Positions 15,070-30,288 are shown, numbered from the stretch's first letter. The stretch: DNA of 64,000 bases from Salinispira sp. (GCA_965602015.1 OZ271918.1:2240001-2304000); one strand, 5' to 3'. The notes: generated from the letters alone by a model not told the origin. Numbers and translations are program-made.

Positions 15070-16860
15070 TTAGCGCTCCAGAACTGCCTTGATGCGCCGA
15101 ACTCCCTGGGAGCTGGACTGTTCTTTTTTGATGCTAAACTTTCCGAGCTGAGCGGTGTGCTCGACGTGGGGGCCGCCGCAGACTTCTTTTGAGAAATCGC
15201 CGATTGAGTACACCTTCACCACCTCCTCGTACTTGTCGCCGAACAGGGCGATGGCGCCGGAATCCCGGGCTTCCGCCAGGGTCATGGTGGTATGGCTAAC
15301 CTTGTGGTCCTTCTGAATTGCCTGATTGACAATATCTTCGACCTTTTTAATCTGCTCGGCAGTCATTTTTTCAGGATGGGAAAAGTCGAAACGCAGGCGC
15401 TCCGGGGTGATGTTTGAGCCTTTCTGAGCGACGTGGTCTCCCAGCACCATTCGCAGAGCCTGATGAAGGAGGTGGGTTGCGGTGTGAAGCGCGGTTGTAG
15501 CTTCGCCGTGATCCGCCAGGCCGCCTTTGAAGCTGCTGTTGGTATCCATCTTAGACATTTCCTGATGTTTGCGGAAGGCCTCGTCGAACCCGTCCTTGTC
15601 TACCGTCAGTCCGTGATCATCGGCCAGCTCCTGAGTCAGTTCCACCGGAAAGCCGTAGGTGTCGTACAGTTTAAATGCCAGCCGCCCGGGAATTATCTTT
15701 TTCGCGCCTTTGAGCAGGTTGGGGAGCATTTTTTCAAACTCGTGCTCACCCTTTTGCAGGGTGATGAGGAACTTTTCTTCCTCCATCAGCAATTCTTTCT
15801 GAATTCCCTCCCGTCGGTCTTCCAGCTCGGGGTAGAACTCCCGGTAGACCCGGATCACCACCGAGGAAAGTTCAGACAGGAAGGCCTTCTCCATACCGAG
15901 CTTTCGCCCGTGAAGCAGGGCCCGGCGGATGAGCCGCCGCAAGATGTAACCCTGTCCAAGATTGGAGGGAGAAACCGCCGCATCGTCTCCGAGTATAAAG
16001 GTGGCGGTGCGCACATGATCGGTAATGATCCTCACCGAACGGTCCACATCGGACTCGCTGTGACCGTAGCTCAGCCCGCTGAGCTCCTCGATTTTCGCGA
16101 TTATGGGAGTGAACAACTCGGTCTGATATACGCTCTGCTTCCCCTGCAGTACGGCTATAGTCCTCTCAACGCCCATGCCCGTGTCGACGCATTTGCGTTC
16201 CATGGGCTCGAAGCTTCCGTCTTCGTTTTTCCGGTACTGCATGAACACATCGTTCCAGATTTCAAGCCATTTTCCATCGCTCACACCGGGCCGGCTGTTT
16301 TCATCGCCGGGGATACCGGTGTCTATGAACATTTCAGTGTCCGGGCCGCAGGGTCCGGTTTGCCCGGGAGGCCCCCACCAGTTATCACTTTTGGGAAGAT
16401 AGAAAATCCGGTCTTCAGGCACCCCGAGTTTCTTCCATAGTGTTGCGCTTTCTTCGTCCCGGGGAGCATCATCATCTCCCTGAAAAACCGTAACCGCGAG
16501 TTTCGAGGGATCGAGCCCCAGGTATTTCTTGCTGGTGAGAAACTCCCAGCTCATACTGATGGCTTCTTCTTTGAAGTAATCCCCAAGGCTCCAGTTGCCG
16601 AGCATTTCAAAGAATGTAAGGTGGGATGAATCACCGACCTCGTCGATGTCGCCGGTGCGGATGCATTTCTGAATATCTGTCAGCCGACTGCCGGCAGGAT
16701 GCTCCTCTCCCAGGATGTACGGCACCAGGGGATGCATGCCGGCGGTGGTAAAGAGGACGGTGGGGTCGTTCTCCGGAACGAGGCTCTTCCCGGATATTTC
16801 CGCGTGATTGTGGTCTTTAAAAAACTGAATATACTTTTGTCTGAGTTCTTTAGCAGTCAT
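15070..16860 (-). CDS. alaS: Alanine--tRNA ligase (short form lacking C-Ala domain)
   Basis: DPTVLFTTAGM, HLTFFEMLGNWS, VDTGMG; editing motifs HTATH and CGGPH; ends GVRRIKA. Confidence 0.97.
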   Translation of the reverse strand: MTAKELRQKYIQFFKDHNHAEISGKSLVPENDPTVLFTTAGMHPLVPYILGEEHPAGSRLTDIQKCIRTGDIDEVGDSSHLTFFEMLGNWSLGDYFKEEAISMSWEFLTSKKYLGLDPSKLAVTVFQGDDDAPRDEESATLWKKLGVPEDRIFYLPKSDNWWGPPGQTGPCGPDTEMFIDTGIPGDENSRPGVSDGKWLEIWNDVFMQYRKNEDGSFEPMERKCVDTGMGVERTIAVLQGKQSVYQTELFTPIIAKIEELSGLSYGHSESDVDRSVRIITDHVRTATFILGDDAAVSPSNLGQGYILRRLIRRALLHGRKLGMEKAFLSELSSVVIRVYREFYPELEDRREGIQKELLMEEEKFLITLQKGEHEFEKMLPNLLKGAKKIIPGRLAFKLYDTYGFPVELTQELADDHGLTVDKDGFDEAFRKHQEMSKMDTNSSFKGGLADHGEATTALHTATHLLHQALRMVLGDHVAQKGSNITPERLRFDFSHPEKMTAEQIKKVEDIVNQAIQKDHKVSHTTMTLAEARDSGAIALFGDKYEEVVKVYSIGDFSKEVCGGPHVEHTAQLGKFSIKKEQSSSQGVRRIKAVLER

Positions 16861-16923
16861 AGGCGCCTATTATAATGAGATGATATTTTGTTGTACAGCA
16901 TAGCCGGGGCCAGGGTACAGGTA

Positions 16924-17460
16924 CTAGTAGAGCAGGTCCGCGCGCATGGTTTCGGTGAGAAATTCATGAAACACATACACATTGAGCCCGTTTCGCCGCT
17001 GACCGGGGGATGCGAAGCCCTTCATCACCATCTGCTCCAGTTCATCCCTCGCCTGCTGGGCCGGGACCCCGGATTCGAGGGCGAGCTGGGCCGCCGTGAG
17101 TATGCCTCCGTTTTCTTCAGCCAGGATGAACATCAGATGTTCCAGGCTTTTGGCCTCGGGTCTCTGGGCAGCCCGGGGTCCGTGGGGAGGAGCCGGGGGA
17201 GCGACGACATACTTCCGCCCGCGGTCGTACTCCTCGGAGTCGAGCTGATGTTCAATATACAGACGACGATTGGTTTCATCGACGAGCTTCGGCATTCTGA
17301 TGAGGTCGACGAGGGTGCCTATGCCTCCCCATCCCCAGGTTATCAAATAGAAAAAACCCGAAACGGGTTTACCCAAATAAAAGCGGTGGATTCCCGCGAA
17401 GCCAAGGGCGCTGGCGAGGCATAGTAGGTAGGAATCCCGCAAACTCTTTTTTTTACTCAC
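16924..17460 (-). CDS. TM2-domain (NINE) membrane protein with C-terminal winged-helix-like region
   Basis: GFAGIHRFYLGKPVSGFFYLITWG. Confidence 0.75.
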   Translation of the reverse strand: MSKKKSLRDSYLLCLASALGFAGIHRFYLGKPVSGFFYLITWGWGGIGTLVDLIRMPKLVDETNRRLYIEHQLDSEEYDRGRKYVVAPPAPPHGPRAAQRPEAKSLEHLMFILAEENGGILTAAQLALESGVPAQQARDELEQMVMKGFASPGQRRNGLNVYVFHEFLTETMRADLLY

Positions 17461-17537
17461 GTATGGTCTCCTGAAAACGGTACTGCACAGTATACTTCAA
17501 TCCCGGGGGATTATTCAATTTACAGCGGGTCCGGGGC

Positions 17538-18887
17538 TTATTCCACCATCTGCTCATCATCGCGGCTGATGATGATTTCACCCTTTTCCTCGAGATGCCG
17601 CAATCGGATAATAAAATCCCTGGTTGCCTCGTCGACTTCCTTCCTGGGAAGGGGACCCATGTAATGGTACACCTCGCTGATGGCTATGCTGCGCTGATTA
17701 CTCACGTTTCTCAGGAACCGGACCCGAATGGCCTCATCCTTGCCCTTCATCAGCAAGGCGATTTCTTCATCGCGCATTTCGGCCAGGATCTTCTGAAGAT
17801 CGGTGTCGCGGATATGCAGTACCCGTTCGATGGTAAACAATCGTTCTTTTATCTGGGCCTCGACCTCAGGGGAGCGCAGACCAAGGTCTTCGAGCAGATT
17901 GCGTTCGCTGCTGGCATCCATGCTCCGGAGAATCTCGGCCAGAACCTGGGCGCCGTCAAGATACTCGCTCTGCTGGGTTCCGATGCGCCGGATTTTTCCC
18001 TTCAGGGCTTTTGCGATGCTGTGCATCACCTCCGCCGACAGTTTGACCCGCTCGCCCATGGTCTTGATGATTTGGGGTTTTACCTCATCCGGCAGATCCT
18101 TTAATAGCCCGGCGGCAAGCTTTGGTTCCAGATGGCTGAGGATGATGCCGACGAGTCTGGGCGGTTCCTCCTTGAGAAGTACCTTCAGCTGGTTTGGCTC
18201 GAGCTCGTTGAGGAACTCGAGCTGATCGATTCCCGCAGGAGCCGCATTTCGCTCAAGAATCTCCGCAGCCCGGTGGCGGCCGAGGGAACGCTCGAGCAGT
18301 TCCTGGGCAAACTCCCTTCCGCCTCTGAGACGCTGCTGCTCTTCCGCCGCGGCAACATGGAAGCGCTCTATGATTTTTTTGCTTTCTTCCGGCTTGAGAA
18401 CCTTTATCCGGCTGATTTCCAGACTGATGGCTTCGACCAAATCGTCGGGCAAAAGGGCGAGGATTTTCGAAGCCTGGTCCTGGCCCATAAGCATGAGGAA
18501 TCCGGCGATTTCCCGAAGCGTCGGTTTCTGACCGGGTTCGGCCTGGGTGACGATTTTAATGAAGTCCGCGGGTTTGACAGCGGATTTTATAAATCCCGCA
18601 TCCGTGGGGCTTTGGGCGCGTGCTTTTGAGGACACAACGGAATCCATGGCAGATTTCGGGATACCCGACGCGCCGCTGTCAGTTTTGGCTGCCGGGGTAG
18701 CGGAACGCGGGAAATGTCCTTCGGTGCTTTTGGCCCCGGCGGCCAGGGCGTCGAGAGCCGATTTATTGGTTTTTGCCGAAGCCTTGCCGCTGGGAGAGTT
18801 GCCGCGGTCCGCTGATGCAGAACCGTCAGAAGACTTTTTTGCCTTTCCGGAATTGTACGCGTTTTGCACCCGTTTGTTCATCTTCAT
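17538..18887 (-). CDS. fliG: Flagellar motor switch protein FliG paralogue with long N-terminal extension
   Basis: GGREFAQELL, KEEPPRLVGIILSHL (EHPQ-like), IKERLFTIE, LRNVSNQR and IRLRHLEEKGEI. Confidence 0.8.
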   Translation of the reverse strand: MKMNKRVQNAYNSGKAKKSSDGSASADRGNSPSGKASAKTNKSALDALAAGAKSTEGHFPRSATPAAKTDSGASGIPKSAMDSVVSSKARAQSPTDAGFIKSAVKPADFIKIVTQAEPGQKPTLREIAGFLMLMGQDQASKILALLPDDLVEAISLEISRIKVLKPEESKKIIERFHVAAAEEQQRLRGGREFAQELLERSLGRHRAAEILERNAAPAGIDQLEFLNELEPNQLKVLLKEEPPRLVGIILSHLEPKLAAGLLKDLPDEVKPQIIKTMGERVKLSAEVMHSIAKALKGKIRRIGTQQSEYLDGAQVLAEILRSMDASSERNLLEDLGLRSPEVEAQIKERLFTIERVLHIRDTDLQKILAEMRDEEIALLMKGKDEAIRVRFLRNVSNQRSIAISEVYHYMGPLPRKEVDEATRDFIIRLRHLEEKGEIIISRDDEQMVE

Positions 18888-18995
18888 ATGCCTAGAATAG
18901 AGGCCGGCGGAATTTAGGTCAATATTAGGGGACCGGCTTTACCGGGCTTTTGCAGAACGGGCCATATTTAGACCACAACCGGTCGAACTCGCCGT

Positions 18996-19553
18996 TCAGG
19001 CGTACCACTCAGCCTCACGCAGCTCGCTTTTCGCCTGACTGGCCATTCGGTAGGCGTCGGCGGCGACACGCATGTCGGCGGTAGACGGATTGCCCGGAGC
19101 ATACGCAGCCCGGATCACCTTTTGGGCCTTCGCAAGAGTGGAACGGGGGTCTCCGGGAACTTCCGACAGGTCGGCTTTTACCGCACCGCCTACCGCATAG
19201 CTCTCGCCGTCCACTCCGGTTCTCGTGTGAAGAATAATGCCCGAAGCCGCTGCGCTACCGAGAGCATACAAATGTGCCCGCTCGTGAGCCCGAATTTCCG
19301 CGTCTCTCATGGCCGCCGAATCGCTGGTCGTAAGGACATAATCGGTGCCCGCAACCCTCAACCCTTCACGTGACATTCCGCAGGATTGAGGGGATTCCAT
19401 GTGGGATTCCCCTGCCCGCTCGCTCTCACCGGCGTTTGCCTCATCATGCAACTTGACCACCAACACCCTTTCGGTTTCGGTGTCCGTGCCGGGAGTCTTG
19501 GGATGCATGCCGGGAACCCTGGGGCCCATACCGTAATCGTAGGCGATTCTCAT
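18996..19553 (-). CDS. SprA-related (putative metalloprotease) family protein
   Basis: RDAEIRAHERAH, YAVGG and RAAYAPGNPSTADMRVAA. Start uncertain. Confidence 0.7.
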   Translation of the reverse strand: MRIAYDYGMGPRVPGMHPKTPGTDTETERVLVVKLHDEANAGESERAGESHMESPQSCGMSREGLRVAGTDYVLTTSDSAAMRDAEIRAHERAHLYALGSAAASGIILHTRTGVDGESYAVGGAVKADLSEVPGDPRSTLAKAQKVIRAAYAPGNPSTADMRVAADAYRMASQAKSELREAEWYA

Positions 19554-19650
19554 TATTACCAGAATAATAGAGAATTTGCGCTTCGGCAAATTCTCAAACC
19601 GAGGGGGCCAAAGGATATAGAATGTGACCGACCTTTTTTTTCAGCTCCGG

Positions 19651-19679
19651 TTGACAATACAGGCTCTACCGACTATAAA
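19651..19679 (+). promoter_or_regulatory. Sigma70-type promoter of tRNA-Phe
   Basis: TTGACA-17 bp-TATAAA. Confidence 0.8.
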
Positions 19680-19701
19680 TACCATCACGTGAAAACGTAA
19701 T

Positions 19702-19774
19702 GCCGCTGTAGCTCAGTCGGTAGAGCAAGGGACTGAAAATCCCTGTGTCATCAGTTCGATTCTGATCGGCGGCA
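19702..19774 (+). tRNA. tRNA-Phe (GAA), CCA not encoded
   Basis: Acceptor GCCGCTG/CGGCGGC, D arm GCTC..GAGC, anticodon arm AGGGA-CTGAAAA-TCCCT and T loop GTTCGATTC. Confidence 0.97.
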
Positions 19775-19778
19775 TGCA

Positions 19779-19814
19779 TAAAAAAGCCCGGACCTTGCGT
19801 CCGGGTTTTTTTAT
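19779..19814 (+). terminator. Terminator downstream of tRNA-Phe
   Basis: AAAAAAGCCCGGAC-CTTGC-GTCCGGGTTTTTTT. Confidence 0.85.
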
Positions 19815-19993
19815 GTAATTCGTCATTGAAGACATCACTGTTGTTCGATTCTATTATTTCGCGCACCGCAGCGGCATATGCCGATGCGAGGAGCGCGAAT
19901 ACTACCGTGCGTATCGCACATCGGGTCGGATCGTAGCCGGGGTGCGGCAAAGACCGATCCCGAAAAGCCCGAAGGGCGAGAAACGCACGGACA

Positions 19994-20029
19994 ATCGGCG
20001 GCATAGATAAAAAAGCCCGGACCTCGCGT
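19994..20029 (+). repeat. Direct repeat of tRNA-Phe 3' end plus 5' half of its terminator (att-like)
   Basis: 33/36 identical to 19765-19800. Confidence 0.85.
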
Positions 20030-20203
20030 GAGGCCACTGAAAAGGTTGCAGATTCAAATGAGTCTGTAGCGTTTTTTTCGCCTTTTGCATAGTGTTGCCA
20101 AAAGACAAAAACAACCCCACATGATTTACATTATTAAATTCGTAATTCGTTTCAGATTAACAGTAAAAAGTGTCAATGCAGCCTGCAGATTCAGATTTGT
20201 GAG
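20030..20203 (-). mobile_element. IS1182-like remnant (terminal repeat plus transposase C-terminal tail)
   Basis: GAGGCCACTGAAAAGGT starts exactly where the duplicated terminator is cut. Minus-strand LQAALTLFTVNLKRITNLIM* resembles IS1182-family transposase ends (from recall). Confidence 0.55.
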
Positions 20204-20467
20204 CATCGCGATTCCCTTCTCACTGCTGAGCACGACGGAGCTGATTGAACGAAGCAGCGAAGCATTCGCTTCGATAATCCCGGTATTTCCGATCAACTCG
20301 CCATCGATATCAAGTTCGCTCATATCATTGACGATGGCTCGTACATCCAGTTTCCGCTTGTGCGCCTGGACAAGGAGTTTGCGAAAATGGGTAGTTTTTC
20401 CCGAACCGTGAAATCCGTTTACGACTCGCGGGAATCGGCGATTTGACTCTACCGGACTGCTGTTCAT
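20204..20467 (-). pseudogene. Truncated COG0523/CobW GTPase (N-terminal fragment)
   Basis: GFHGSGKTT and IVNDMSELDIDG, then lost after about 88 aa. Confidence 0.75.
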
Positions 20468-20515
20468 TCGTTTTCACTGTTCTTCTTTTCCTCGGATGGG
20501 TATATGCCGCCAAGC

Positions 20516-20544
20516 TTGACGCAGGGGAACGCGGGTAATACTAT
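20516..20544 (+). promoter_or_regulatory. Sigma70-type promoter for the COG0523 operon
   Basis: TTGACG-17 bp-TACTAT, 11 nt before the ATG. Confidence 0.6.
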
Positions 20545-20555
20545 ATCCACCGTCT

Positions 20556-21656
20556 ATGAAACAGCCGTCGACGCTTCCAGGTAAAATCCCTGTGGTAATC
20601 ATCACCGGTTTTCTCGGATCGGGTAAAACCTCACTCATCGCCGATCAGCTCGATGGATCTCAGGATGATCTGGCCGTTATCGTTCACGATCTGGGCGAGG
20701 AAAATATCGATGTCGCATTTCTCAAGGGGGGAGAGCATGTTTCCCTTACCTCAAATACACGGATCAGATCCGTCTCATCAGGGTACCTGACTTCCTCTCA
20801 CCTCGATCAGTTGACCAGAGAAATCGATGCGCTATCGGATCTCGAACCCCGGCCGATGGCGATATTAGTTGAGACCTCCGGCGCTGCCAATGTGGTGCCG
20901 GTCATAGAAAAGCTCCGGGCTCCCGGTGAGTCCTGGGAGCTCATTTCCGTCTTGACCGTCCTGGATTCCTCGGTGATCGGTGATTACCGGGAAGACCCTT
21001 CGATCGCCCCCCTTCTGGAGACCCAGGCCTTATCGGCGTCTTTACTGATCCTCAACAAATGGGACCGGGCAAACCGAATCCAGCGGAAGCACGCCAAAAC
21101 CTTTGCCGATTATATTCGTTCGAAGAACGGGTCAGACCTGGAAACCACGAAGTTCGGCCGGATCAAACTCCGGCTTCTCCTGACCCGTCGCCTGATCCCC
21201 GGCAAAAGCTCACTACCGGAGGCCAATACCCGGGAATCAATCGAGTCGTTCCATCTGACGACACGGCGGCCGTTTCACCCCGAACGACTGGAGAGATGGC
21301 TGGACACATCCTGGACAGGCATCATCCGCGTCAAAGGCTTCGTTTGGATAGCCAGCGATATGGAGGGCATTTATGTGCTCGACGCCGCGGGCTCACAACG
21401 GGAAGTAGGCCTTGAGGGTACCTGGTACGCCAGCGTTGCCGACGACGAGCTTCGGGACGATCCGGAGGTTCAAAAACTCGTGAAGGAGCATCCCTTCGGA
21501 GACCGAAGACAAGCCCTCACCATAATCGGAAGGCCCGAGAGCATTGCTCAGGCAAAAAACGAACTCGAAGCGGCACTGCTCCGGGATGATGAAATGGCTA
21601 TAGGACCTGAGGGATGGCAATCATTCCCGGATCCCCTTACCGGAAAATTTACGTGA
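20556..21656 (+). CDS. COG0523 (CobW/YciC-like) GTPase with CobW_C domain, lacking CxCC
   Basis: GFLGSGKT, ETSG, NKWD; RPFHPERL, RVKGFVW and FGDRRQ. Confidence 0.88.
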   Translation: MKQPSTLPGKIPVVIITGFLGSGKTSLIADQLDGSQDDLAVIVHDLGEENIDVAFLKGGEHVSLTSNTRIRSVSSGYLTSSHLDQLTREIDALSDLEPRPMAILVETSGAANVVPVIEKLRAPGESWELISVLTVLDSSVIGDYREDPSIAPLLETQALSASLLILNKWDRANRIQRKHAKTFADYIRSKNGSDLETTKFGRIKLRLLLTRRLIPGKSSLPEANTRESIESFHLTTRRPFHPERLERWLDTSWTGIIRVKGFVWIASDMEGIYVLDAAGSQREVGLEGTWYASVADDELRDDPEVQKLVKEHPFGDRRQALTIIGRPESIAQAKNELEAALLRDDEMAIGPEGWQSFPDPLTGKFT

Positions 21657-21663
21657 GTCCCGA

Positions 21664-22590
21664 ATGAAGGCGATTCTGTTCGGCGGATTCCTCGCTGCAG
21701 GCAAAACCACCGCGCTGAATCAGGTTCTCGGTTTCATTCGTGGTGAAAAACCCCATGCCCGAGTGGCCCTGCTCATAAACGAATTCGGCGATCGGTCGGT
21801 GGATACCGCGATGTTTTCAACTGAGGTCTATCAGCGGGAAATCAGCGGAGGCTGCATTTGCTGTTCCTTAAGAATGGCGTTGATTGAACAGGTCCGGGAG
21901 ATTCGGCAGACGGTGAACCCGGATTTTTTACTCATCGAAGCGACGGGCCTTGGGATCCCCGAAGATATCCTGAACTCCATCGGGTCAATCGGAGCCTGCG
22001 AATCCGCCGGAATTCTCTGCGTGGATCCGGCACATGTGACACTGTATGGCCAAAGAATACCGCTTTTTTCCCGCCAGCTTGCCGGAGCGGACACGGTGCT
22101 CCTGACGAAAACAGATCTGTATCCGCCGGAGAAGAACCAATCAATTTTATCTGAACTAGAAAGCACATACCCCAACATCACGATCTACCGTTCTCCGATC
22201 AATGCGCTCAAGGGACTCATTTATCGCTCAAATTCGAGCGCTCTCGGATCGATACGTCCGGAGGAACCCGGCCAGGAAGCTCCCGGGCTGGGCATCAGTC
22301 AAAAAAGTCTGGTTCTCGAGTCACCCGTTTCATTGAGCGAGCTGGAGTCTTCCTGCCGGCGGATCAGTGATGAGTACGGATCCGCACTCCTGCGCATCAA
22401 GGGCATTATCCCCCATGATGAGCAGTGGGTGGTTTTTCAATATTACAACCAAAGCTTCCGGATGTATGAGCATAATGGAGCAAGACCGGATAGCCCGTTC
22501 ATCGTCATAATCGCCCTCGAAAAAATGATGCGGGAGGTAGAACCAACCCGATTATTCGCTACGGCGAACATCTTGAAATCGGGGACATAA
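21664..22590 (+). CDS. COG0523 GTPase with GCICC metal motif
   Basis: GFLAAGKTT, INEFG, SGGCICC, EATG, TKTD and LLRIKGI. Confidence 0.88.
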   Translation: MKAILFGGFLAAGKTTALNQVLGFIRGEKPHARVALLINEFGDRSVDTAMFSTEVYQREISGGCICCSLRMALIEQVREIRQTVNPDFLLIEATGLGIPEDILNSIGSIGACESAGILCVDPAHVTLYGQRIPLFSRQLAGADTVLLTKTDLYPPEKNQSILSELESTYPNITIYRSPINALKGLIYRSNSSALGSIRPEEPGQEAPGLGISQKSLVLESPVSLSELESSCRRISDEYGSALLRIKGIIPHDEQWVVFQYYNQSFRMYEHNGARPDSPFIVIIALEKMMREVEPTRLFATANILKSGT

Positions 22591-22609
22591 GCACCTATGG
22601 TTTGAATAT

Positions 22610-23035
22610 ATGAGCCATCCAAAGGTATCGGAAATACTCGAGAGAAGCGGTCTCAAAGTCACCCAGCAACGATTACTCCTGCTAAAGACAATTCTCGATT
22701 CGCAGGCGGTTTTTACCGCAGCATTCTTGGAAAAAGAGGTGGCCGGGAAGATGAACTCGGTCACGGTCTACCGCATACTCGCCGCATTTCAGAAACATGA
22801 CATCATCCGTGAAGTGATTTCAAGCGATGTTACCCGGTTCTATGAGTTGTCCCGCTCCGATGAACCGGCCCATCCCCATTTTCTCTGCCATGATTGCGAT
22901 CAGATCCTCTGTCTCGAACCTTTGAGCCCGGAAGATTTTGCCATGATCCGCAGCTTATCTAAGAATCATCAAATCCGCAGCGTAGCAATACAGTTCACCG
23001 GCATTTGCGAGGAATGCCGGAAAAAGCATTCTTAG
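22610..23035 (+). CDS. Fur-family regulator (probably Zur-like)
   Basis: GLKVTQQR, VTVYRIL, HPHFLCHDC and GICEEC. Confidence 0.88.
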   Translation: MSHPKVSEILERSGLKVTQQRLLLLKTILDSQAVFTAAFLEKEVAGKMNSVTVYRILAAFQKHDIIREVISSDVTRFYELSRSDEPAHPHFLCHDCDQILCLEPLSPEDFAMIRSLSKNHQIRSVAIQFTGICEECRKKHS

Positions 23036-23037
23036 TA

Positions 23038-23094
23038 TTTACAGCTTCCTGTTTAAACCGTATTCTCATTTTATATGCAACTTAGTTGCATTTA
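23038..23094 (+). promoter_or_regulatory. Promoter with overlapping 8-1-8 palindromic operator
   Basis: TTTACA-17 bp-TATTCT (23038-23066); ATGCAACT-T-AGTTGCAT at 23075-23091. Confidence 0.8.
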
Positions 23095-23131
23095 CTACAT
23101 TCATACTAATTACCTGCCTGGAGCATGATAT

Positions 23132-24280
23132 ATGGGTATTTTGAACGTTTTTTCTCATTCGTCGCCTATGTACGATGTCGCTATAGTTGGGGCCGGTCCC
23201 TCGGGAATCGGAGTAGCCGCTATTCTTAAGGACTTAGGGTGCGAGAATTACATTATTCTCGAGAGGCATCAGCCGGGCTATTCGTTTACCAAGTGGCCCG
23301 AAGAAACCAAACTTATCACCCCTTCATTTACGACGAATTTTTACGGTCAGATGGACTTAAACGCCGTCGTACAGGGCACCTCTCCGGCATACTCACTGGG
23401 CATGGAACACCCATCAGGCAGAGATTACGCCCGATACCTGAATTTGGCTGTGGAGCATTTGGATCTGCCGATCCGCGCTCCTTTCGACGTGTCCGCAGTC
23501 GAGGGGGAAGGTGGGTACTTCCGTATCAAAGCTCAGGACGGATCATCCATTGACGCAAAGTATGTCGTCTGGGCCGCCGGGGAGTTTCAGTATCCTAGGG
23601 AAGACAGTTTTCTCGGGGCAGAGCATTGCAGACACTACGCACATATTGAGCGATTCAGCGACTATTCGGGTAAAAATGCCGTGGTTATTGGAGGGTATGA
23701 AAGCGGGATCGATGCGGCGATCCATTTGAGCAGGCAGGGTAAAACGGTGAAGGTAATCGGAAAAACCCCTTTCTGGACAATAAACACCACCGATCCCAGT
23801 AATAATCTCAGCCCTTTTACCCGGGAAAGGCTCACGGAAGAAATGGCCAAAGGCCGCATTGAGCTGATCGGAGATACTCGGGTAGTGGAAGTGGAATTTG
23901 CCGATGGTATCTACCGCATTCACACGGATGCATCATCGATAGCCATTGAAAGCCCTGCTCAGCCGATTCTGGCCACCGGATTTCTGTCCAGCCTCTCCGT
24001 GGTACGTGAGCACTTCGCATTCCCGGAAGACGATTGGATTCCCAGCCTTACCCAGGAGGATGAGTCGGTTATTGCTCCCGGTTTGTTTCTCGTCGGTCCC
24101 CAGGTACGACATGATTCGATCATTTTCTGTTTTATATACAAATTTCGCCAACGCTTCGGGGTTGTGGCCCGGGCCCTGGGACATCGCTTGGGATTGGATA
24201 CCACCAAAACAGAAAAATACCGTCAGGAAGGACTTTTAATGGATGATTTATCTTGCTGCTCACAGGAGTGTTCATGTTGA
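23132..24280 (+). CDS. NAD(P)/FAD-dependent oxidoreductase (CzcO-like) with Cys-rich tail
   Basis: IVGAGPSG, VIGGYESGIDAA, LATGF and FCFIYKFRQRF; ends LSCCSQECSC. Confidence 0.85.
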   Translation: MGILNVFSHSSPMYDVAIVGAGPSGIGVAAILKDLGCENYIILERHQPGYSFTKWPEETKLITPSFTTNFYGQMDLNAVVQGTSPAYSLGMEHPSGRDYARYLNLAVEHLDLPIRAPFDVSAVEGEGGYFRIKAQDGSSIDAKYVVWAAGEFQYPREDSFLGAEHCRHYAHIERFSDYSGKNAVVIGGYESGIDAAIHLSRQGKTVKVIGKTPFWTINTTDPSNNLSPFTRERLTEEMAKGRIELIGDTRVVEVEFADGIYRIHTDASSIAIESPAQPILATGFLSSLSVVREHFAFPEDDWIPSLTQEDESVIAPGLFLVGPQVRHDSIIFCFIYKFRQRFGVVARALGHRLGLDTTKTEKYRQEGLLMDDLSCCSQECSC

Positions 24281-25935
24281 CTGCGGAACGTCAAGTGAAA
24301 AACAGTACCCAAAAGTCTACTGTGGTGATTATCGGGAAGGAGAGCACCGGGAAAACCCGTCTCATTTCATCGTTGACGGGGCACTCGGGCCATTCCACCA
24401 ATGTGAAAGGCACGACTGTCCACTGTGATCGCTATGAGGGGCATTCACACATTTTTATCGATACTCCGGGGATTATCATCGAAGAGGATACCCACACGAC
24501 GAAAAGCGCGCTGGAAGCCCTAGCTGATGCAGAGCACGTGATGCTTGTGGTCAGCGCGCTTCAAATCGATGAGGATCTGGCAGATTTGCTTCCCCTTGTT
24601 CGGGGTAAGACCGGGATGGTCGTCATAAGTTTTTGGGATAAATTCAAGGGCAATCAAAGCGCGGCGGAACAGCTCCGTACCGAGGGAATAGCTTGCATAG
24701 AAGTAGACGCCCGGAACCTCGATGAGAAAAGCATTGAGGCGATTCATGGGGAATTAGCTAAGGAGCATGATTTTACCGATAATGAATACATTTCCCAACA
24801 CTTCTGGCGCTATACCCCGGAAAAAACCCTGTTCGATCGACCCGTAGCTGGCAAGATTGCATCCTTATTATTACTGTTCCTGCCGGCAGCAGCAGCAGTG
24901 TATTCCGCCAATTCCTTGGCGGATGCCTTGTACGGCCCGCTCTATTCTTTATTTTCTCCGCTGCTTAACGCGGTCAATAGCCTTCCGGCTCCGTTGAATT
25001 ACTTCCTCGGACTGGACTACGGAATCGTTGCCATGTTTCCATTTTTACTATTGTATGCCCTGCCCACCATACTGCTATTCGCCGTTTTTCTGGGAATCTA
25101 TAAGACCAGCGGCCTTTTGGACAAAATATCAGCTTCGATCCACCCTTTATTGGCGCCATTCGGCCTTGGCGGTCGGGATCTGGTGAGAGTCGTCATGGGT
25201 TTTGGGTGTAATGTTCCCGCGGTGATTAACTCCCGGGCCTGCTCAGTCTCAACCCGTCGGGCCTGTGTACATGCAATCGGATTCGGATCGGCATGTTCAT
25301 ACCAGCTGCCGGCCACCATTGCGGTTTTCAGCGCGGCGGGCCTTGGATATCTCGCATTTCCGTTTCTTCTGCTTTTGACTGCGGCGACGCTGTTCTATTT
25401 ATTCTTGTTGCGAAAAGGCCGGAGAGAACGCGTGCGGCTCTCCCTTGTCAGCAACTCCGGGCTGCTCACCAGGCCGGGGTTCAAAGACACGATGCTCGAA
25501 GTCCGCGGGGTTATCAGACAGTTTTTCACCCTGGCCCTTCCGGTCTTTGTGCTGATCTGCCTTGTGGCCTCCCTGCTCGCCTGGACCGGATTACTCGATG
25601 CCATGACCCGGGCCGTCGCTCCGTTAATGGGCATATTCCGGCTGCCCCCGGAAGCAGCACCGGCGGTAATTCTGGGCTCGGTAAGAAAGGACGGCATCGC
25701 CATTGGTCTGCTCAATCCGGATTGGGGCTCGTTCAAGGCGGGAGTCCTTACCCCCCTTCAAACCTTAACCGCGGTATTTCTCGCGGGCACTCTTCTGCCC
25801 TGCCTGGTGACCGTATGGACGATTCGAAAAGAGTTCGGCATCAGGCGCACCGCATCCCTGGTCATGAGACAGATGGGGTTCTCGGTTATGGCCACTCTCG
25901 CCATCGCCTGGATCGGCGGCCTCCTGGTCATGTAG
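24274..25935 (+). CDS. FeoB-like GTPase/Gate-domain membrane transporter
   Basis: GKESTGKT, GTTV, DTPG; Gate motifs GFGCNVPA and LPCL. AGGAG RBS; overlaps the oxidoreductase stop. Confidence 0.85.
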   Translation: MLTAERQVKNSTQKSTVVIIGKESTGKTRLISSLTGHSGHSTNVKGTTVHCDRYEGHSHIFIDTPGIIIEEDTHTTKSALEALADAEHVMLVVSALQIDEDLADLLPLVRGKTGMVVISFWDKFKGNQSAAEQLRTEGIACIEVDARNLDEKSIEAIHGELAKEHDFTDNEYISQHFWRYTPEKTLFDRPVAGKIASLLLLFLPAAAAVYSANSLADALYGPLYSLFSPLLNAVNSLPAPLNYFLGLDYGIVAMFPFLLLYALPTILLFAVFLGIYKTSGLLDKISASIHPLLAPFGLGGRDLVRVVMGFGCNVPAVINSRACSVSTRRACVHAIGFGSACSYQLPATIAVFSAAGLGYLAFPFLLLLTAATLFYLFLLRKGRRERVRLSLVSNSGLLTRPGFKDTMLEVRGVIRQFFTLALPVFVLICLVASLLAWTGLLDAMTRAVAPLMGIFRLPPEAAPAVILGSVRKDGIAIGLLNPDWGSFKAGVLTPLQTLTAVFLAGTLLPCLVTVWTIRKEFGIRRTASLVMRQMGFSVMATLAIAWIGGLLVM

Positions 25936-26319
25936 AGGACCGGTCAAATAATCTGATCTCATGTTCCTATCCGTAGCGGAGTTGTATCCAAACATATAAC
26001 ACTTTCTCTTACACAATGCGGCTACGGCATAGCTGTCTGCTAAAGATGTGGTTTTCAATATCCCACTGATAGGAAGTAATTGTATTCACTTCAATACAGC
26101 GGTTTTTACAAGTATTCCCGTAAATATCCTTCGCGGAGACCGCGAATACGGGCATGGGGCCTTTGCGCCCGGTGTTCACCTGTACGAAGACTCAGTCTCT
26201 TACGACAATTGCCACCGGAGTCTCAGGTCGCTGCTCGTCGATCCTATTTGCCGTCGTTTCACTTATCGTCGCTTTTGGCGTCGGCCCATATCCGACCGAA
26301 CTGATTGACTGGGTGGAGC

Positions 26320-26368
26320 GTTTCCCAGACATCTTCCCGTTCAGGCTCGCAGAGAACGGCCTTTAACT
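26320..26368 (+). repeat. Imperfect direct repeat, copy 1
   Basis: About 40/49 identity to 28972-29019 (first 25 nt 23/25). Confidence 0.7.
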
Positions 26369-26445
26369 GATCGTATCTATGCTGTGACTCGGGATGTTAT
26401 CGGCTCCAAAGCAAAGGGAGTCGGGCAATACCTGAGGTTGGTAAC

Positions 26446-26492
26446 TTGAAAAACAGCACTCCAACGTTTATGATATTGTTAACAGTGTAAAC
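26446..26492 (+). promoter_or_regulatory. Promoter and candidate operator of the GbsR-like gene
   Basis: TTGAAA-17 bp-TATGAT, then imperfect palindrome GTTAACA-G-TGTAAAC. Confidence 0.6.
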
Positions 26493-26505
26493 GTATGGAG
26501 GCGTA

Positions 26506-26952
26506 ATGATCCGTGAGAATGTCATTGAAAAGATGGGGAGTCTGTTTGCCGACTTCGGGCTCAAACCGTTGATGGGACGGATATTCGGACTGCTCCTGGC
26601 TTCGGAAGAAGCACTGAGTCTCAGCCAGATAGCTGCCGATCTCGAGGTCTCGAAAGCTGCGGTAAGCATTCTGATCCGCCAGCTCGAATCCTTCGGGTAC
26701 TGCCGGAAGCTTCCGACCAAGGGTAACAGGGAACATTTTTACCTGCTCCGGGAAAACTACCTTCCCTTTACCTATGGGAGGCGAATATCCCGGGAAATGA
26801 GTCAGCTGGATATCATTCGGGAACTCGGGGATTCCGAAAGCGATGCCCCGGCCTTCATTAGGGAGCGCATTGGGGAGTTTATGGCGTTTAACGAGTTCAT
26901 CATCCGCGAACAGGGAAAGGCGCTGGAAAAATGGAAGGAGAATGTACGATGA
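26506..26952 (+). CDS. GbsR/MarR-family transcriptional regulator
   Basis: GLKPLMGRIFGLLL, LSLSQIAADLEVSKAAVS. Confidence 0.85.
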   Translation: MIRENVIEKMGSLFADFGLKPLMGRIFGLLLASEEALSLSQIAADLEVSKAAVSILIRQLESFGYCRKLPTKGNREHFYLLRENYLPFTYGRRISREMSQLDIIRELGDSESDAPAFIRERIGEFMAFNEFIIREQGKALEKWKENVR

Positions 26953-27776
26953 CCATACAGCACACGGATGGTCGGGAGACCTATTATGAGACCTTCGGTG
27001 ACTCTCAGGACCGAGCCGTGATTTTGATCCACGGACTTGGGGCAGAATCCTCATCATGGATGCACCAGAATCATTGGCTGGCAGACCGTGGCTTTTTCGT
27101 CATCGTCCCGGATATGTTCGGCCACGGGCGAAGCGGCAGGCTCGGAGATGACGGGATAAACGAATGGACCATCCAGATCGAGGCTCTCCTCGATCACTAT
27201 CAGCTCGCATCGGCAGTATTAATCGGTGTCAGCATGGGGGGTGTTATCGCCATCAATTTCAGTGTCAGCAGACCCGACCGGATTACCGCCCTGATCGTTT
27301 CGGACAGCTTTGCCGAACAAAAAACCGCCGGAGAGAAACTCCTGGGTTTCAGCCAGGTGATAGGATTCCGGGCTTTCAAATTGCTGGGCAGAAAGCTTTT
27401 CGCTCGGGGTATGGCAGCGGCATATCCTCAGGATTTCGCACAAGACGCACGGCAGTACATGTTCGAACGGAGTTTGCAGGCCGACTTCGACCAGCTAATC
27501 AAAGCCCGCAAAGCCATCAATACTGTCTCCGCATTAGATGCATTATCCCGGTTTCAGGTTCCGAGCCTGATCATCGTCGGATCTGAATTCGGAAAGAGCT
27601 TCGTAAAAATCAATCGGAAAATCGCCGATGCGATCCCCGGAGCGGAATTTGCCGTCTTGGAGCAATCAATGGATCCTTCGCCGATGGTAAATCCCCGGGA
27701 GTTCAACAGTCAGCTCTCCTCGTTCTTCGAGAGACATTTTGGAAAAGCGTCTCATTCTTCCCGGGAGATAGTCTGA
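26949..27776 (+). CDS. Alpha/beta hydrolase
   Basis: LIHGLG, DMFGHGRS and GVSMGG. ATGA overlap with the regulator. Confidence 0.85.
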   Translation: MTIQHTDGRETYYETFGDSQDRAVILIHGLGAESSSWMHQNHWLADRGFFVIVPDMFGHGRSGRLGDDGINEWTIQIEALLDHYQLASAVLIGVSMGGVIAINFSVSRPDRITALIVSDSFAEQKTAGEKLLGFSQVIGFRAFKLLGRKLFARGMAAAYPQDFAQDARQYMFERSLQADFDQLIKARKAINTVSALDALSRFQVPSLIIVGSEFGKSFVKINRKIADAIPGAEFAVLEQSMDPSPMVNPREFNSQLSSFFERHFGKASHSSREIV

Positions 27777-28897
27777 TGCCTGAATCACCCGGAATGACTC
27801 TCCGCCGGGCACTATTTCCCATTCTGTTATGGGTGGTACTGGCGGCATCCTGCACGAGCTGGTCAGCTCCGATTCCGCCAGTCGGAGCAGATGCCCCTCT
27901 CCCGCTCCGGGAAGGCCCTTCATACTTTTCTGTCGGAACGGCGACAGACCGGGCATTGGCCCAGGTTGATGATACGCAAGCTCACCGTCTGCACAGCCTC
28001 CTGGTGGGCCTGGATGGGCAAATCATCCTGGAACGCTATTTTAATCATAGGGATGAAGGCTCGATTCACGACATCCGCTCAGCGACTAAGAGTATCACGG
28101 CGATCCTGGTGGGAATCGCCATCGATCGGGGAATCATTTCAGGGGTCGATCAGCCCGTCCCGGAGATTCTCCGGGCGGCATATCCCGATATCGAAATTCC
28201 AGAGGATCTCACGATACGTCATCTGCTAACCATGTCCGCAGGGAAGGATTGCGATGATTGGGACCGACGCTCGCCGGGAAACGAGAATCGGATGTACCGG
28301 GCCCATGATTGGACGGAGTTTTTCCTTTCTCTTGATCAAGTCGCGTCACCCGGTGAGGTCGGGAGATATTGTACCGGAGGGGTTGTCGCGCTGGGAAGAA
28401 TTCTCGAGCTTTCTCTGGAGATCCCCCTGAATGATTGGGCCGATCAGGTTCTCTTCAAGCCTCTTGGTATACGCAACTACCACTGGGAGTATTACCAGGG
28501 TGAAACCAGCGTCGATACCGGCGGCCATCTTCACATAAGCTCACGGGGGCTCATGGCGCTGGGATTTATGCTGCTTCAAGAGGGTCAATGTGCCGGAGAG
28601 CGAATCGTCAGCGCTGAATGGATTGATGAAATGTGGACGCCAAGGAGCGATCTTTCCGGCCGGATGTATGGATACCTTTGGTGGCCTCAGATAGTGGACT
28701 ACGGCTCCGTACCGGTCCGGGTGCTTGTGGCCCGGGGAAACGGAGGCCAAAGCCTCTTCCTGGTTCCGTCTCTCGGTCTTTCCGCTGTGGTGACCACGGG
28801 ATGTTACAACGATCCCCGGTCGACCGTGTCCGATCAACTATTTTTTAATGCAATTCTTCCCGATGTCCTGAAAATAGGTTCGGCAACGGAAAAGTAA
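27776..28897 (+). CDS. Serine hydrolase, beta-lactamase family (lipoprotein)
   Basis: Lipobox LAASC; SATK, HLLTM, YGYLWW and ARGNGGQ. Confidence 0.85.
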   Translation: MPESPGMTLRRALFPILLWVVLAASCTSWSAPIPPVGADAPLPLREGPSYFSVGTATDRALAQVDDTQAHRLHSLLVGLDGQIILERYFNHRDEGSIHDIRSATKSITAILVGIAIDRGIISGVDQPVPEILRAAYPDIEIPEDLTIRHLLTMSAGKDCDDWDRRSPGNENRMYRAHDWTEFFLSLDQVASPGEVGRYCTGGVVALGRILELSLEIPLNDWADQVLFKPLGIRNYHWEYYQGETSVDTGGHLHISSRGLMALGFMLLQEGQCAGERIVSAEWIDEMWTPRSDLSGRMYGYLWWPQIVDYGSVPVRVLVARGNGGQSLFLVPSLGLSAVVTTGCYNDPRSTVSDQLFFNAILPDVLKIGSATEK

Positions 28898-28971
28898 TAA
28901 AAGCAAAGAGAAGGAGTGTGTTTATGAGCAATAGATCCGGTACCAATGACAGCGTTGTACTATCATCATCG

Positions 28972-29019
28972 GTTTCCCGGACATCTTTCCGTTCAGAGTC
29001 GTGGAGACGGCCTCTATCT
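28972..29019 (+). repeat. Imperfect direct repeat, copy 2
   Basis: Matches 26320-26368. Confidence 0.7.
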
Positions 29020-29186
29020 TGTAGTATTGATGTTGTTGCTCGGGTTGTTTCTACCCCTCAGGGAAATCGCCAAGGGAACCATCAGGTAACGTCGGCCAAC
29101 GCCCAACTGGTTGAAAAAGTCAATAAAAAGTGGTCCTAAAGCAATCCAAAATAGTGACGTATGATCCGGACATAAAGGAGGATACT

Positions 29187-30200
29187 GTGAAAAAGATATG
29201 CCTTGGAAACACCGGCATCGAGGTCAGCGAAATGTGCCTGGGCACAATGTATTTCGGCAGCCGCGTTGAAGAGGAAACCGCGTTTGCCCTGCTTGATGCC
29301 TACGTGGATCGAGGCGGGAACTTTGTGGATACGTCGAATAATTACTGCTTCTGGCTGGATGGTTTTACCGGCGATGAAAGTGAAATCACCCTGGGTCGAT
29401 GGATGGCCGAGAGGAAGAACCGGAATGAAGTGTATCTTGCTACAAAATGCGGCGTGCGGCCCATTAATCAGCAGGGGGACTTTGAGGGACTTTCCCGATC
29501 GGCGATTATGAATGCTGTGGAGGGTAGTCTGAAGCGCCTAAAAACTGACCATATCGATCTGTATTATATGCATGTAGACTGGCGTGCCACCCATCTCGAA
29601 GAAACCCTCGGAGCTTTTTATGAACTGATAGAACAGGGAAAGGTCGGAAATATAGCCGCAAGCAATATGAGCACATGGCGGTTGATAAAGGCGAAAGAAA
29701 TTTCCCGGCAAAACGGATGGAAGGAGATTGCTGCAATACAGCAATGGTATTCGTACCTCAGGCCGAGAGACGGCGCAGCCCTGTGGGTCCAGAAGTTTGC
29801 TGATGAGGAGTTGTTCGATTATTGTGAGGCCGAAAAGGATACCACCGTCCTGGCGTATACTTTAACCTTGGGAGGGCTTTACGGCTGGGATAGCATTTAT
29901 GAACGAAATCATCCGGCCCTGGGAACCAGATTCTTCTCAGAAGACAATGAACGGCGCTTAGAGACGGTCAAAGAGCTAAGCCGGGAAAGAGGAGTCTCCC
30001 CTTTTCAGGTGGTATTCGCCTGGCTCAGAAAACATCGAATCCCCATAATCCCGATCCTGGGAGTGAGAACCATGTCCCAGTTACAGGACAACCTCAAATC
30101 TCTTGATTGGGAGATGAGCCCGGAAGAGTTCGAGCGGATGTCGAAGGCGGCGTTCAACCACAAAGAATATGAGAAGAATGAACCAGTGAAACTGCTGTAA
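29187..30200 (+). CDS. Aldo/keto reductase
   Basis: CLGTMYFG, DTSNNY and SLKRLKTDHIDLYYMH. GTG start after AAGGAGG. Confidence 0.92.
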   Translation: MKKICLGNTGIEVSEMCLGTMYFGSRVEEETAFALLDAYVDRGGNFVDTSNNYCFWLDGFTGDESEITLGRWMAERKNRNEVYLATKCGVRPINQQGDFEGLSRSAIMNAVEGSLKRLKTDHIDLYYMHVDWRATHLEETLGAFYELIEQGKVGNIAASNMSTWRLIKAKEISRQNGWKEIAAIQQWYSYLRPRDGAALWVQKFADEELFDYCEAEKDTTVLAYTLTLGGLYGWDSIYERNHPALGTRFFSEDNERRLETVKELSRERGVSPFQVVFAWLRKHRIPIIPILGVRTMSQLQDNLKSLDWEMSPEEFERMSKAAFNHKEYEKNEPVKLL

Positions 30201-30288
30201 TGCTATTGTTACCGGACTGATTGTGGGCTCGGAGTGCCTACGGTCCGCTTCCAGGCAGCCCCCGAGTGGTGTCGGCAGGAAACGAGAT

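Follow-up and report, generated by a model that had tools for sequence, protein, structure and literature searches.

What is the role, in Salinispira sp., of five closely packed genes that encode, in this order, two COG0523 GTPases (COG0523-A and COG0523-B), a Fur-family regulator, an NAD(P)/FAD flavoprotein and a FeoB-like GTPase-permease? They lie at positions 20,556–25,935 of a stretch of 64,000 nucleotides (nt; GCA_965602015.1 OZ271918.1:2240001-2304000), which was analyzed as a whole and is called here the window. A reading made from the sequence alone (the sequence-only reading) had proposed an acquired, self-regulated system for the uptake and delivery of zinc or another non-iron metal. 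The interpretation favoured here, to which a rough probability of 0.6 is given, is that the genes form an island acting as a zinc-starvation module, in which a predicted Zur-type repressor would act at a palindromic operator, and the pair formed by the flavoprotein and the FeoB-like protein would import Zn(II) or some other divalent metal with affinity for thiols. The link to zinc drawn by the sequence-only reading is supported by three independent lines of evidence, i.e., the synteny of the pair with hallmarks of Zur regulons across phyla, the agreement of the operator with the Zur-box consensus of Desulfovibrio, and the control by Zur of a similar gene grouping in Staphylococcus. The present analysis shows the regulatory logic through a Zur-type box and the coupling of the two genes of the pair. 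A response to zinc has been demonstrated by other authors, in S. aureus alone, and we infer which metal is moved, in which direction, and what the flavoprotein does.

Conservation of the Flavoprotein/FeoB-like Pair

The neighbourhood of the pair was studied in 80 module loci, which are the best 80 of 493 confirmed FeoB-like relatives in species-representative genomes; as these top matches include close kin, the counts do not represent independent events. A flavoprotein homolog was present in 73 of the 80 loci, of which 65 have it immediately upstream and co-oriented, 5 immediately downstream and 3 in another placement; two of the seven loci without it are cut by a contig end. About nine phyla are represented, with a majority of Verrucomicrobiota, besides Cyanobacteriota, Pseudoalteromonas, SAR324, Planctomycetota, Desulfobacterota, Spirochaetota, Gemmatimonadota and Acidobacteriota. 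All the open reading frames (ORFs) of the 80 loci were clustered, and Pfam was run on representatives. The neighbours so identified were COG0523 (51 loci), phosphoribosyl-AMP cyclohydrolase (HisI; 32), Fur family (15) and CysRS (11) and, more rarely, MerC-like proteins (8), DksA (7), ThrRS (6), SufE (6) and a CcmM-like gamma-carbonic-anhydrase protein (6). A zinc-starvation regulon typically comprises COG0523 along with additional paralogs of HisI, CysRS, ThrRS, DksA and ribosomal protein S14. The co-occurrence across phyla anticipated by the sequence-only reading was thus found, with neighbours of the zinc type.

The FeoB-like family occurs on plasmids as well (523 records, 493 of them from Klebsiella and 20 from Escherichia, haloarchaea being also represented). 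The Halocatena marina plasmid NZ_CP110251.1 (L111:5618-8656) encodes an oxidoreductase, a ribosomal protein S14 of 61 amino acids (aa) and a FeoB-like protein 45.6% identical to that of the window, with the gene of a GTP-binding protein alongside, so it can be said that the module crosses domains of life. The Klebsiella plasmid islands (e.g., NZ_CP047701.1) resemble that of the window in that dksA, COG0523, Fur-family repressors, cysS, an oxidoreductase, a FeoB-like protein (32% identical to the window's), zigA and hisI stand in one mobile block. Since the block of the Klebsiella IncHI1B plasmid contains two ‘transcriptional repressor’ genes, portable islands bringing their own Fur-family regulator are recurrent. 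Compared to them, the island of the window is smaller, chromosomal and without paralog genes for zinc-dependent enzymes.

The MerC-like membrane proteins stand beside the pair in loci L036, L057, L067, L071, L083, L024, L030 and L077, and a MerC-like gene directly follows a Zur-type box in the metagenome locus L144; a zinc-related use of this mercury-transporter fold is possible. The verrucomicrobial loci contain three conserved families of small ORFs without Pfam match, interspersed with or adjoining the genes of the flavoprotein, the FeoB-like protein and HisI, of about 156–174 aa (11 loci), 200 aa (6 loci) and 71 aa (13 loci), exemplified by L027:8323-8847, L022:8386-8973 and L024:11921-12136.

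Operator and Regulator

The perfect operator that the sequence-only reading placed before the last two genes is indeed there. The palindrome ATGCAACTTAGTTGCAT (Table 1) is located 9 nt past a promoter-like −10 element and 41 nt ahead of the flavoprotein ATG, and in the 3.87-Mb genome it is the sole site that matches, at up to 1–2 mismatches, above control level. When the 96-nt spacer in which it lies was shuffled 5000 times, 39 of the shuffles gave a palindrome with arms of at least 8 nt. The same spacer holds ATTCTCATTT directly ahead of the palindrome. All 14 of the 14 specified bases of the Desulfovibrio Zur-box consensus ATGCAACNNNGTTGCAT, as given in the work of Rodionov et al. (PMC545781), agree with ATGCAACTTAGTTGCAT; that box was predicted there, in 2004, upstream of znuABC-zur. 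From this likeness, the 141-aa regulator is predicted to be a Zur with an operator like that of Desulfovibrio (ZUR_D). The arrangement is different, as in Desulfovibrio the box precedes znuABC-zur, while in the window it precedes the flavoprotein/FeoB-like operon and the operon of the regulator is boxless.

The exact 17-mer ATGCAACTTAGTTGCAT was also searched for in metagenome contigs, where at least 120 stretches contained it, and 80 of these loci were analyzed. Within 2.5 kb of the 17-mer, a Fur-family gene was found in 34 of the 80 (23 by tblastn plus 11 more by Pfam), often immediately adjacent, ZnuA or ZnuB in 16, and a ZIP transporter in 3. TonB-dependent receptors were near it in 6–7 of the loci, and COG0523 accompanied by DksA, RibA or FolE paralogs in 3. 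Of 55 loci checked in this respect, 51 had the 17-mer between genes. Other loci, where it is surrounded by unrelated genes, are probably chance matches. YibE/F-family membrane proteins adjoin a Fur-family gene and the ATGCAACTTAGTTGCAT box in loci L176, L123, L135 and L161 and are possibly a further type of Zur-controlled membrane protein. Acylphosphatase genes are beside the fur gene in the metagenome loci L114, L157 and L168.

Concerning the module loci themselves, the pattern ATGCAA-N5-TTGCAT occurred six times in the 80 loci (1.19 Mb), versus 0, 0 and 0 for three control patterns, and all six sites were 12–286 nt upstream of a COG0523 gene adjoining the pair, in Planctomycetota, Verrucomicrobiota (four loci) and Desulfosarcina. 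Palindromes centred on GTTATAAC, which presumably resemble the gamma-proteobacterial Zur box, precede the pair in 7 of the 11 Pseudoalteromonas loci and in the Thermodesulfobacteriota locus L044. In 12 of the 14 cyanobacterial loci there is a 7-1-7 box similar to TGATAAT-G-ATTATCA, which we take to be the Anabaena Zur box, 25–60 nt before the flavoprotein gene. The Zur of Anabaena is described as binding a 7-1-7 palindrome (PMC3323870). No similar palindromes were seen before the flavoprotein gene in the nearest relatives L014, L016, L017 and L069.

Relation to a Zur-Regulated Staphylococcal Operon

The grouping that the sequence-only reading mentioned for Staphylococcus is real. According to the supplement to Haas 2009 (PMC2770081, Fig. 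S13 and Table S13), COG0523 subgroup 14 is co-localised with ZnuA, TrxB and FeoB, in the genomes of S. epidermidis, S. aureus (SAOUHSC_02901), Crocosphaera and Cyanothece. The S. aureus operon HG001_02621-24 is presented as Zur-regulated, with its proteins raised in a zur mutant and calprotectin-induced, in a 2026 article (PMC13586535, NAR). It is likely that the subgroup 14 cluster and this operon are the same, and the transporter of the operon would be a member of the FeoB-like family considered here. The three gene kinds are side by side there as in the island, and the S. aureus flavoprotein of Protein Data Bank (PDB) entry 3D1C is 37% identical to that of the window and has the same kind of cysteine tail. 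The island differs in the addition of its own Fur-family regulator, of a second, CxCC-less COG0523, and of a Desulfovibrio-type operator.

The description of the system as uncharacterised also holds, in the sense that the grouping is in print while no published functional test of the flavoprotein/FeoB-like pair was found in literature searches; the papers on ZigA and ZepA do not mention the pair. The gene grouping is already published, and the novelty here lies in an island equipped with a regulator and an operator of its own, in a host that also has a native Zur system.

Evidence Weighing against a Zinc Module

Several observations, together with the kinship among the 80 module loci, weigh against the interpretation as a zinc-starvation module. 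The first of them concern the regulator. It belongs to the Fur family, and its translation displays two CxxC pairs (CHDC and CEEC), as in a structural Cys4 site, and an HPH motif. By sequence, its nearest NCBIfam models are PerR, with 49.6 bits, which is below cut-off, and Fur; versus the E. coli-type Zur model PRK11639 it scores 20.4 (cut-off 167). Among PDB entries it is closest to Fur of C. jejuni and PerR of B. subtilis, with about 49 bits. No NCBIfam model reaches its cut-off and the PDB matches are weak, which gives no subtype. The identity to the Fur proteins that adjoin the same box in metagenomes is 22–31%. So, of the Zur-like regulator proposed by the sequence-only reading, the membership of the Fur family and the Zur-type operator stand, while the protein sequence has no above-cut-off match to a characterised Zur group.

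A second group of observations concerns the boxes. The claim of self-regulation was not substantiated, as the operator precedes the last two genes only, and no Zur-type box precedes the COG0523-A/B-regulator operon in a scan of the window allowing up to 2 mismatches; unlike the window, the metagenome loci with the 17-mer usually show autoregulation. The same box is found beside an exporter of the cation diffusion facilitator (CDF) family in one metagenome locus and beside YibE/F proteins in four. In Pseudoalteromonas promoters there is an element, AATGAATTCTCATT, that is Fur-like by eye; some hosts may therefore control the pair by iron as well, with possible dual iron and zinc control in Pseudoalteromonas. 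This element is a conserved 5-4-5 palindrome about 60–80 nt upstream of the flavoprotein gene that accompanies the Zur-like boxes (L025, L029, L035, L040, L041, L047-L051 and L061). Finally, COG0523-A lacks CxCC, versus its presence in 75 of the 79 module-linked COG0523 proteins elsewhere.

Flavoprotein and Proposed Mechanism

The flavoprotein matches Pyr_redox_3 (PF13738) with 292.4 bits over 2–305 of 305 positions, and the dinucleotide-binding motifs GAGPSG and GGYESG are invariant in the alignment of module flavoproteins. Its C-terminus, DDLSCCSQECSC (CCSQECSC), forms a CC-x3-C-x-C tail. Among 68 module flavoproteins, 64 have a tail of the form CC-x2-4-C-x-C, the exceptions being four short verrucomicrobial forms. 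The tail was also found in 89 of 120 wider homologs; among the other 31, all 12 inspected retain three of the cysteines. In the structural model (pLDDT 87.8) the last residues are below 50, from which the four-cysteine tail is taken to be flexible. The closest relative of known structure is S. aureus Mu50 NP_373108.1 (3D1C, ‘putative monooxygenase’), with E 2.4e-75, TM 0.87–0.92 and the C-terminus SCCEVSCTC. Next come Bdr/YpdA, ahead of flavin-containing monooxygenases (FMOs) and thioredoxin reductases. FMOs are identified by the motif FxGxxxHxxxY/F; the flavoprotein does not contain it, the position reading FLGAEHCRH, and FxGxxxCxH appears in 47 of the 68 module flavoproteins. The flavoprotein shares its two-Rossmann NAD(P)/FAD fold with Bdr/YpdA (7A76, 7A7B) and CzcO/COG2072. 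Bdr is the nearest characterised structure (TM 0.70–0.84), but the score of 73 bits with TIGR04018 is far below the YpdA cut-off of 339.9, and the four-cysteine tail, FxGxxxCxH and the genetic coupling to a permease set the flavoprotein apart from Bdr and CzcO.

A working mechanism can be outlined for the zinc-starvation module. With plentiful zinc, the Zn-loaded repressor would occupy TGCAACT-T-AGTTGCA just past the −10 element and block transcription; with scarce zinc, it would leave the operator. The FeoB-like protein, having an NFeoB-like G domain and a permease similar to Gate proteins and concentrative nucleoside transporters, would move the metal along a thiolate-lined path under nucleotide control, a path putatively composed of the invariant Cys312, Cys323, Cys331, Cys341 and Cys510. 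The flavoprotein, the fold of which is nearest to bacillithiol disulfide reductase, might use NAD(P)H and its four-cysteine tail to keep those thiols reduced or, alternatively, to accept the metal at the cytoplasmic exit, and COG0523-B, with its CxCC motif, could hand the metal to client proteins. A bolder version, put forward tentatively and at somewhat less than an even chance, is that the pair represents a new class of zinc importer, nucleotide-gated and with a thiolate path, which could not work without its NAD(P)H flavoprotein. The tail of the latter would re-reduce the gate, or take Zn from it and pass it to COG0523, and the whole would be a plug-in cassette that brings its own Zur and its own operator and is insulated from the native Zur regulon.

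The main weakness of the zinc interpretation is that Zn(II) is redox-inert, which leaves the need for a flavoprotein unexplained. We know of no precedent for a redox partner serving a redox-inert metal, and therefore the strongest rival has the pair handling a different metal, or a thiol compound, when zinc is short. In that case the genes would still be a zinc-shortage module, and the pair would not be a zinc carrier: it would import Fe2+, Mn2+ or Co2+ to replace zinc in cambialistic enzymes, or the flavoprotein would be a zinc-independent redox enzyme and its membrane partner would move a thiol or sulfur compound. In favour of this rival, most other members of the neighbourhoods are zinc-sparing paralogs rather than importers, SufE is encoded in six of the loci, the fold of the flavoprotein is nearest to a low-molecular-weight thiol disulfide reductase, and the family name of the FeoB relatives designates iron carriers. 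Nevertheless, this explanation is considered unlikely, given the strict coupling of the flavoprotein gene, by stop/start overlap, to a permease with five invariant cysteines, the frequent adjacency of COG0523 metallochaperone genes to the pair, and the existence of a canonical FeoAB in the host.

FeoB-like Protein and Its Relation to Iron Transport

The FeoB-like family is distinct, with members of about 540–570 aa that are 44–52% identical to the protein of the window. The G domain is recognised weakly by FeoB_N (PF02421, 31.2 bits, cut-off 27), and the permease by Gate (PF07670, 84.3 bits in 2 stretches). A Foldseek search gave NFeoB 3ss8 as the top match (E 3.7e-5), while phmmer versus PDB found only Era. 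The best fold matches of the model (pLDDT 76.5) are NFeoB G domains and, for the membrane part, concentrative nucleoside transporters. The five cysteines assigned above to the thiolate path are kept in 17–18 of 18 aligned members.

These features raise the question whether the genes are simply an ordinary Fe(II) uptake system, in which FeoB and accessory proteins would be under a Fur-type iron repressor. The protein has the architecture of FeoB (TIGR00437; PF02421 + PF07670 + PF07664), i.e., an N-terminal G domain followed by a Gate-type permease, with the motif GFGCNVPA in common and NFeoB structures as top fold matches; the TIGR00437 feoB model matches residues 171–527 with E 6e-28, the relatives are annotated at source as ‘ferrous iron transport protein B’, the best named matches of the regulator are Fur and PerR, and the Pseudoalteromonas promoters contain the Fur-like element mentioned above. 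However, the TIGR00437 score of 97.9 is far under the cut-off of 315.65; FeoB_C (PF07664) is absent from the protein according to Pfam, and no FeoA domain was found by Pfam in the module or in the ORFs that flank it. The operator has the form of a Zur-type box and not of GATAATGATnATCATTATC (PMC545781), the neighbourhoods are of the zinc type and control in S. aureus is by Zur. In agreement with the non-iron role claimed by the sequence-only reading, the genome has elsewhere its own FeoB, in a canonical feoA-feoB-dtxR locus with a DtxR-type repressor; that FeoB contains FeoB_C and is only 22% identical to the FeoB-like protein. Other differences from FeoB are the length (553 versus 670 aa), the extra invariant Cys323 and Cys331, and the family G4 motif, which is T[FH]WD[KR]. 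Ordinary iron uptake appears, on balance, improbable.

It is very improbable that the pair serves efflux or detoxification in the manner of CzcO, a flavoprotein associated with the zinc exporter CzcD: close homologs of the flavoprotein are named ‘putative flavoprotein involved in K+ transport’ at JGI, a name that we take to designate COG2072/CzcO, and a CDF gene is beside the box in one metagenome locus, but Zur-type boxes and zinc-scarcity genes are the opposite of what an exporter would require, and the partner has the fold of a FeoB-like importer and not that of CDF. The name CzcO is given to COG2072 in PMC7570161.

Acquisition of the Island and Native Zinc System

The host is a spirochaete judging by its FliG, the nearest named homolog of which, 61% identical, is that of Salinispira pacifica. 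The acquired character of the genes, already claimed by the sequence-only reading, was supported by comparing positions 16500–30500 with two congeners, one of them with a complete genome. The interval 20524–25943 had zero DNA match in either, while its flanks do match. A search with the FeoB-like protein gave, in the two congeners, only matches of E 1e-6 to 3e-4, and its best non-self match among 40 relatives had 31% identity. The five genes are thus supported, by comparison of sequences, as a horizontally acquired island. In a quick tree, the FeoB-like protein is on a long branch (1.28) and groups weakly with SAR324, Uabimicrobium and Thermodesulfobacteriota (SH-aLRT 89), which does not resolve the donor.

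On the left, the island abuts the remnant of a native cobW-like gene without CxCC. The remnant and its promoter region (~20201 to ~20523) are 92% identical in DNA to the full gene of one congener (G002), which encodes a 409-aa CxCC-less protein and adjoins cobalamin (B12) genes. The left junction (20126–20523) coincides with the point where, in G002, an rve transposase and an AAA_22 gene are inserted (L103:4794-7959), so that at one junction there is different DNA in the two congeners, i.e., the island in one and transposase genes beside an intact cobW-like gene in the other. The promoter predicted for COG0523-A spans the junction, with its −35 in native DNA and its −10 in island DNA.

The sequence-only reading also placed the genes next to a tRNA integration scar. 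The att-like pair of 36-nt repeats does exist, corresponding to the 3′ end of tRNA-Phe plus the terminator, with both copies upstream of the module and 229 nt apart. The repeats were rejected as ends of the island because the native cobW-like remnant lies between them and the module; they neither bracket nor delimit it, and a Pfam scan found no integrase domain in the flanking ORFs.

It is hardly credible that the island is a decaying or silent passenger with a regulator and an operator no longer functional, as, despite the loss of CxCC in COG0523-A, the contact with a truncated native gene and the long branch of the FeoB-like protein, the five frames are open and of full length, the invariant residues of the flavoprotein and FeoB-like families are retained, and the palindrome is perfect.

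The host has a native zinc locus outside the window (G000:C1:886322-891374; L109:6323-11374), which consists of a row of genes for a ZigA-like COG0523 (375 aa), a Fur-family protein (162 aa), a 129-aa ORF, ZnuA, ZnuC and ZnuB. The ZigA-like protein (C1:886351) scores 510.1 bits versus the NF038288 cut-off of 600. The locus is preceded by a perfect 7-1-7 palindrome, TGGTACT-T-AGTACCA, unique in the genome, which differs from the island box at core positions 3–4, and the island regulator is 27% identical, over 101 residues, to the native 162-aa Fur protein. From these differences, two insulated regulator-operator pairs would coexist in one genome. A third Fur-family gene (G000:C1:1761438-1761863; L100:1453-1878) encodes a 141-aa protein with PerR models as its best matches (77 bits, below cut-off).

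Gene Layout and COG0523 Proteins

As the sequence-only reading had it, the block consists of five co-oriented genes; all of them are intact ORFs of the plus strand. The intergenic gaps are 7 nt between the two COG0523 genes, 19 nt between COG0523-B and the regulator, and 96 nt between the regulator and the flavoprotein, the stop of which is overlapped 7 nt by the ATG of the FeoB-like gene; an alternative TTG start of the latter is at 24253. This spacing fits two transcription units, COG0523-A/B-regulator followed by flavoprotein/FeoB-like, and a consensus scan predicts a promoter for each. The only RNA family detected by Rfam in positions 19000–27000 was tRNA, with no riboswitch.

The pairing of COG0523 GTPases also stands, in view of the cobW and CobW_C matches of both proteins (87.5 and 70 bits for COG0523-A; 100.1 and 21.4 bits, the latter just below the cut-off of 22, for COG0523-B), with CxCC being present only in COG0523-B. 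COG0523-A has Walker A, Walker B and NKxD, and reads SGYLTS where CxCC is expected. It is 28% identical to the native 409-aa CxCC-less protein of the congener and 22% to COG0523-B. Neither of the two is a ZigA equivalog by NF038288 (160.8 for COG0523-A and 58.5 for COG0523-B, cut-off 600), and ESM Atlas places COG0523-A in generic CobW clusters only. A CxCC-less COG0523 paralog is also present in two verrucomicrobial module loci, L019:12959-14149 and L028:10687-11871 (GSHARE and GVHARD).

Table 1. Features of the island and its left flank, with positions counted from the first nucleotide of the window.
Feature	Position	Strand	Length	Basis or description
tRNA-Phe (GAA)	19701..19775	+		ARAGORN; Rfam RF00005, 71.8 bits
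36-nt direct repeats (att-like scar)	19765..19800 and 19994..20029	+	36 nt	92% identical; repeat search
Native cobW-like gene remnant, CxCC-less	20126..20467	-	113 codons	N-terminal part; Pfam cobW, 37 bits
Promoter-like TTGACG-17-TACTAT, before COG0523-A	20516..20544	+		Consensus scan
COG0523-A	20556..21656	+	366 aa	cobW + CobW_C (Pfam, NCBIfam)
COG0523-B	21664..22590	+	308 aa	Canonical GCICC motif; Pfam cobW, 100 bits
Fur-family regulator	22610..23035	+	141 aa	PF01475, 49 bits
Promoter-like TTTACA-17-TATTCT, before flavoprotein/FeoB-like operon	23038..23066	+		Consensus scan
Operator ATGCAACTTAGTTGCAT	23075..23091			Perfect 8-1-8 palindrome; 7-1-7 core TGCAACT-T-AGTTGCA
NAD(P)/FAD flavoprotein	23132..24280	+	382 aa	Pyr_redox_3, 292 bits
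FeoB-like GTPase-permease	24274..25935	+	553 aa	MMR_HSR1 + FeoB_N + two Gate domains

Biological Implications

The pair is widespread, in marine Verrucomicrobiota, cyanobacteria, haloarchaeal plasmids and the 493 Klebsiella plasmid records and, through the published S. aureus operon, in staphylococci. The window offers a compact natural test case, with one regulator, one perfect operator, one target operon, and a native Zur with a different box. If the pair imports zinc, it would constitute an acquisition route beyond the kinds of importer seen nearby (ZnuABC, ZIP and TonB-dependent receptors) and, for a redox-inert metal, a first example of uptake coupled to a redox enzyme. Knowing its function would help in understanding both marine zinc limitation and nutritional immunity.

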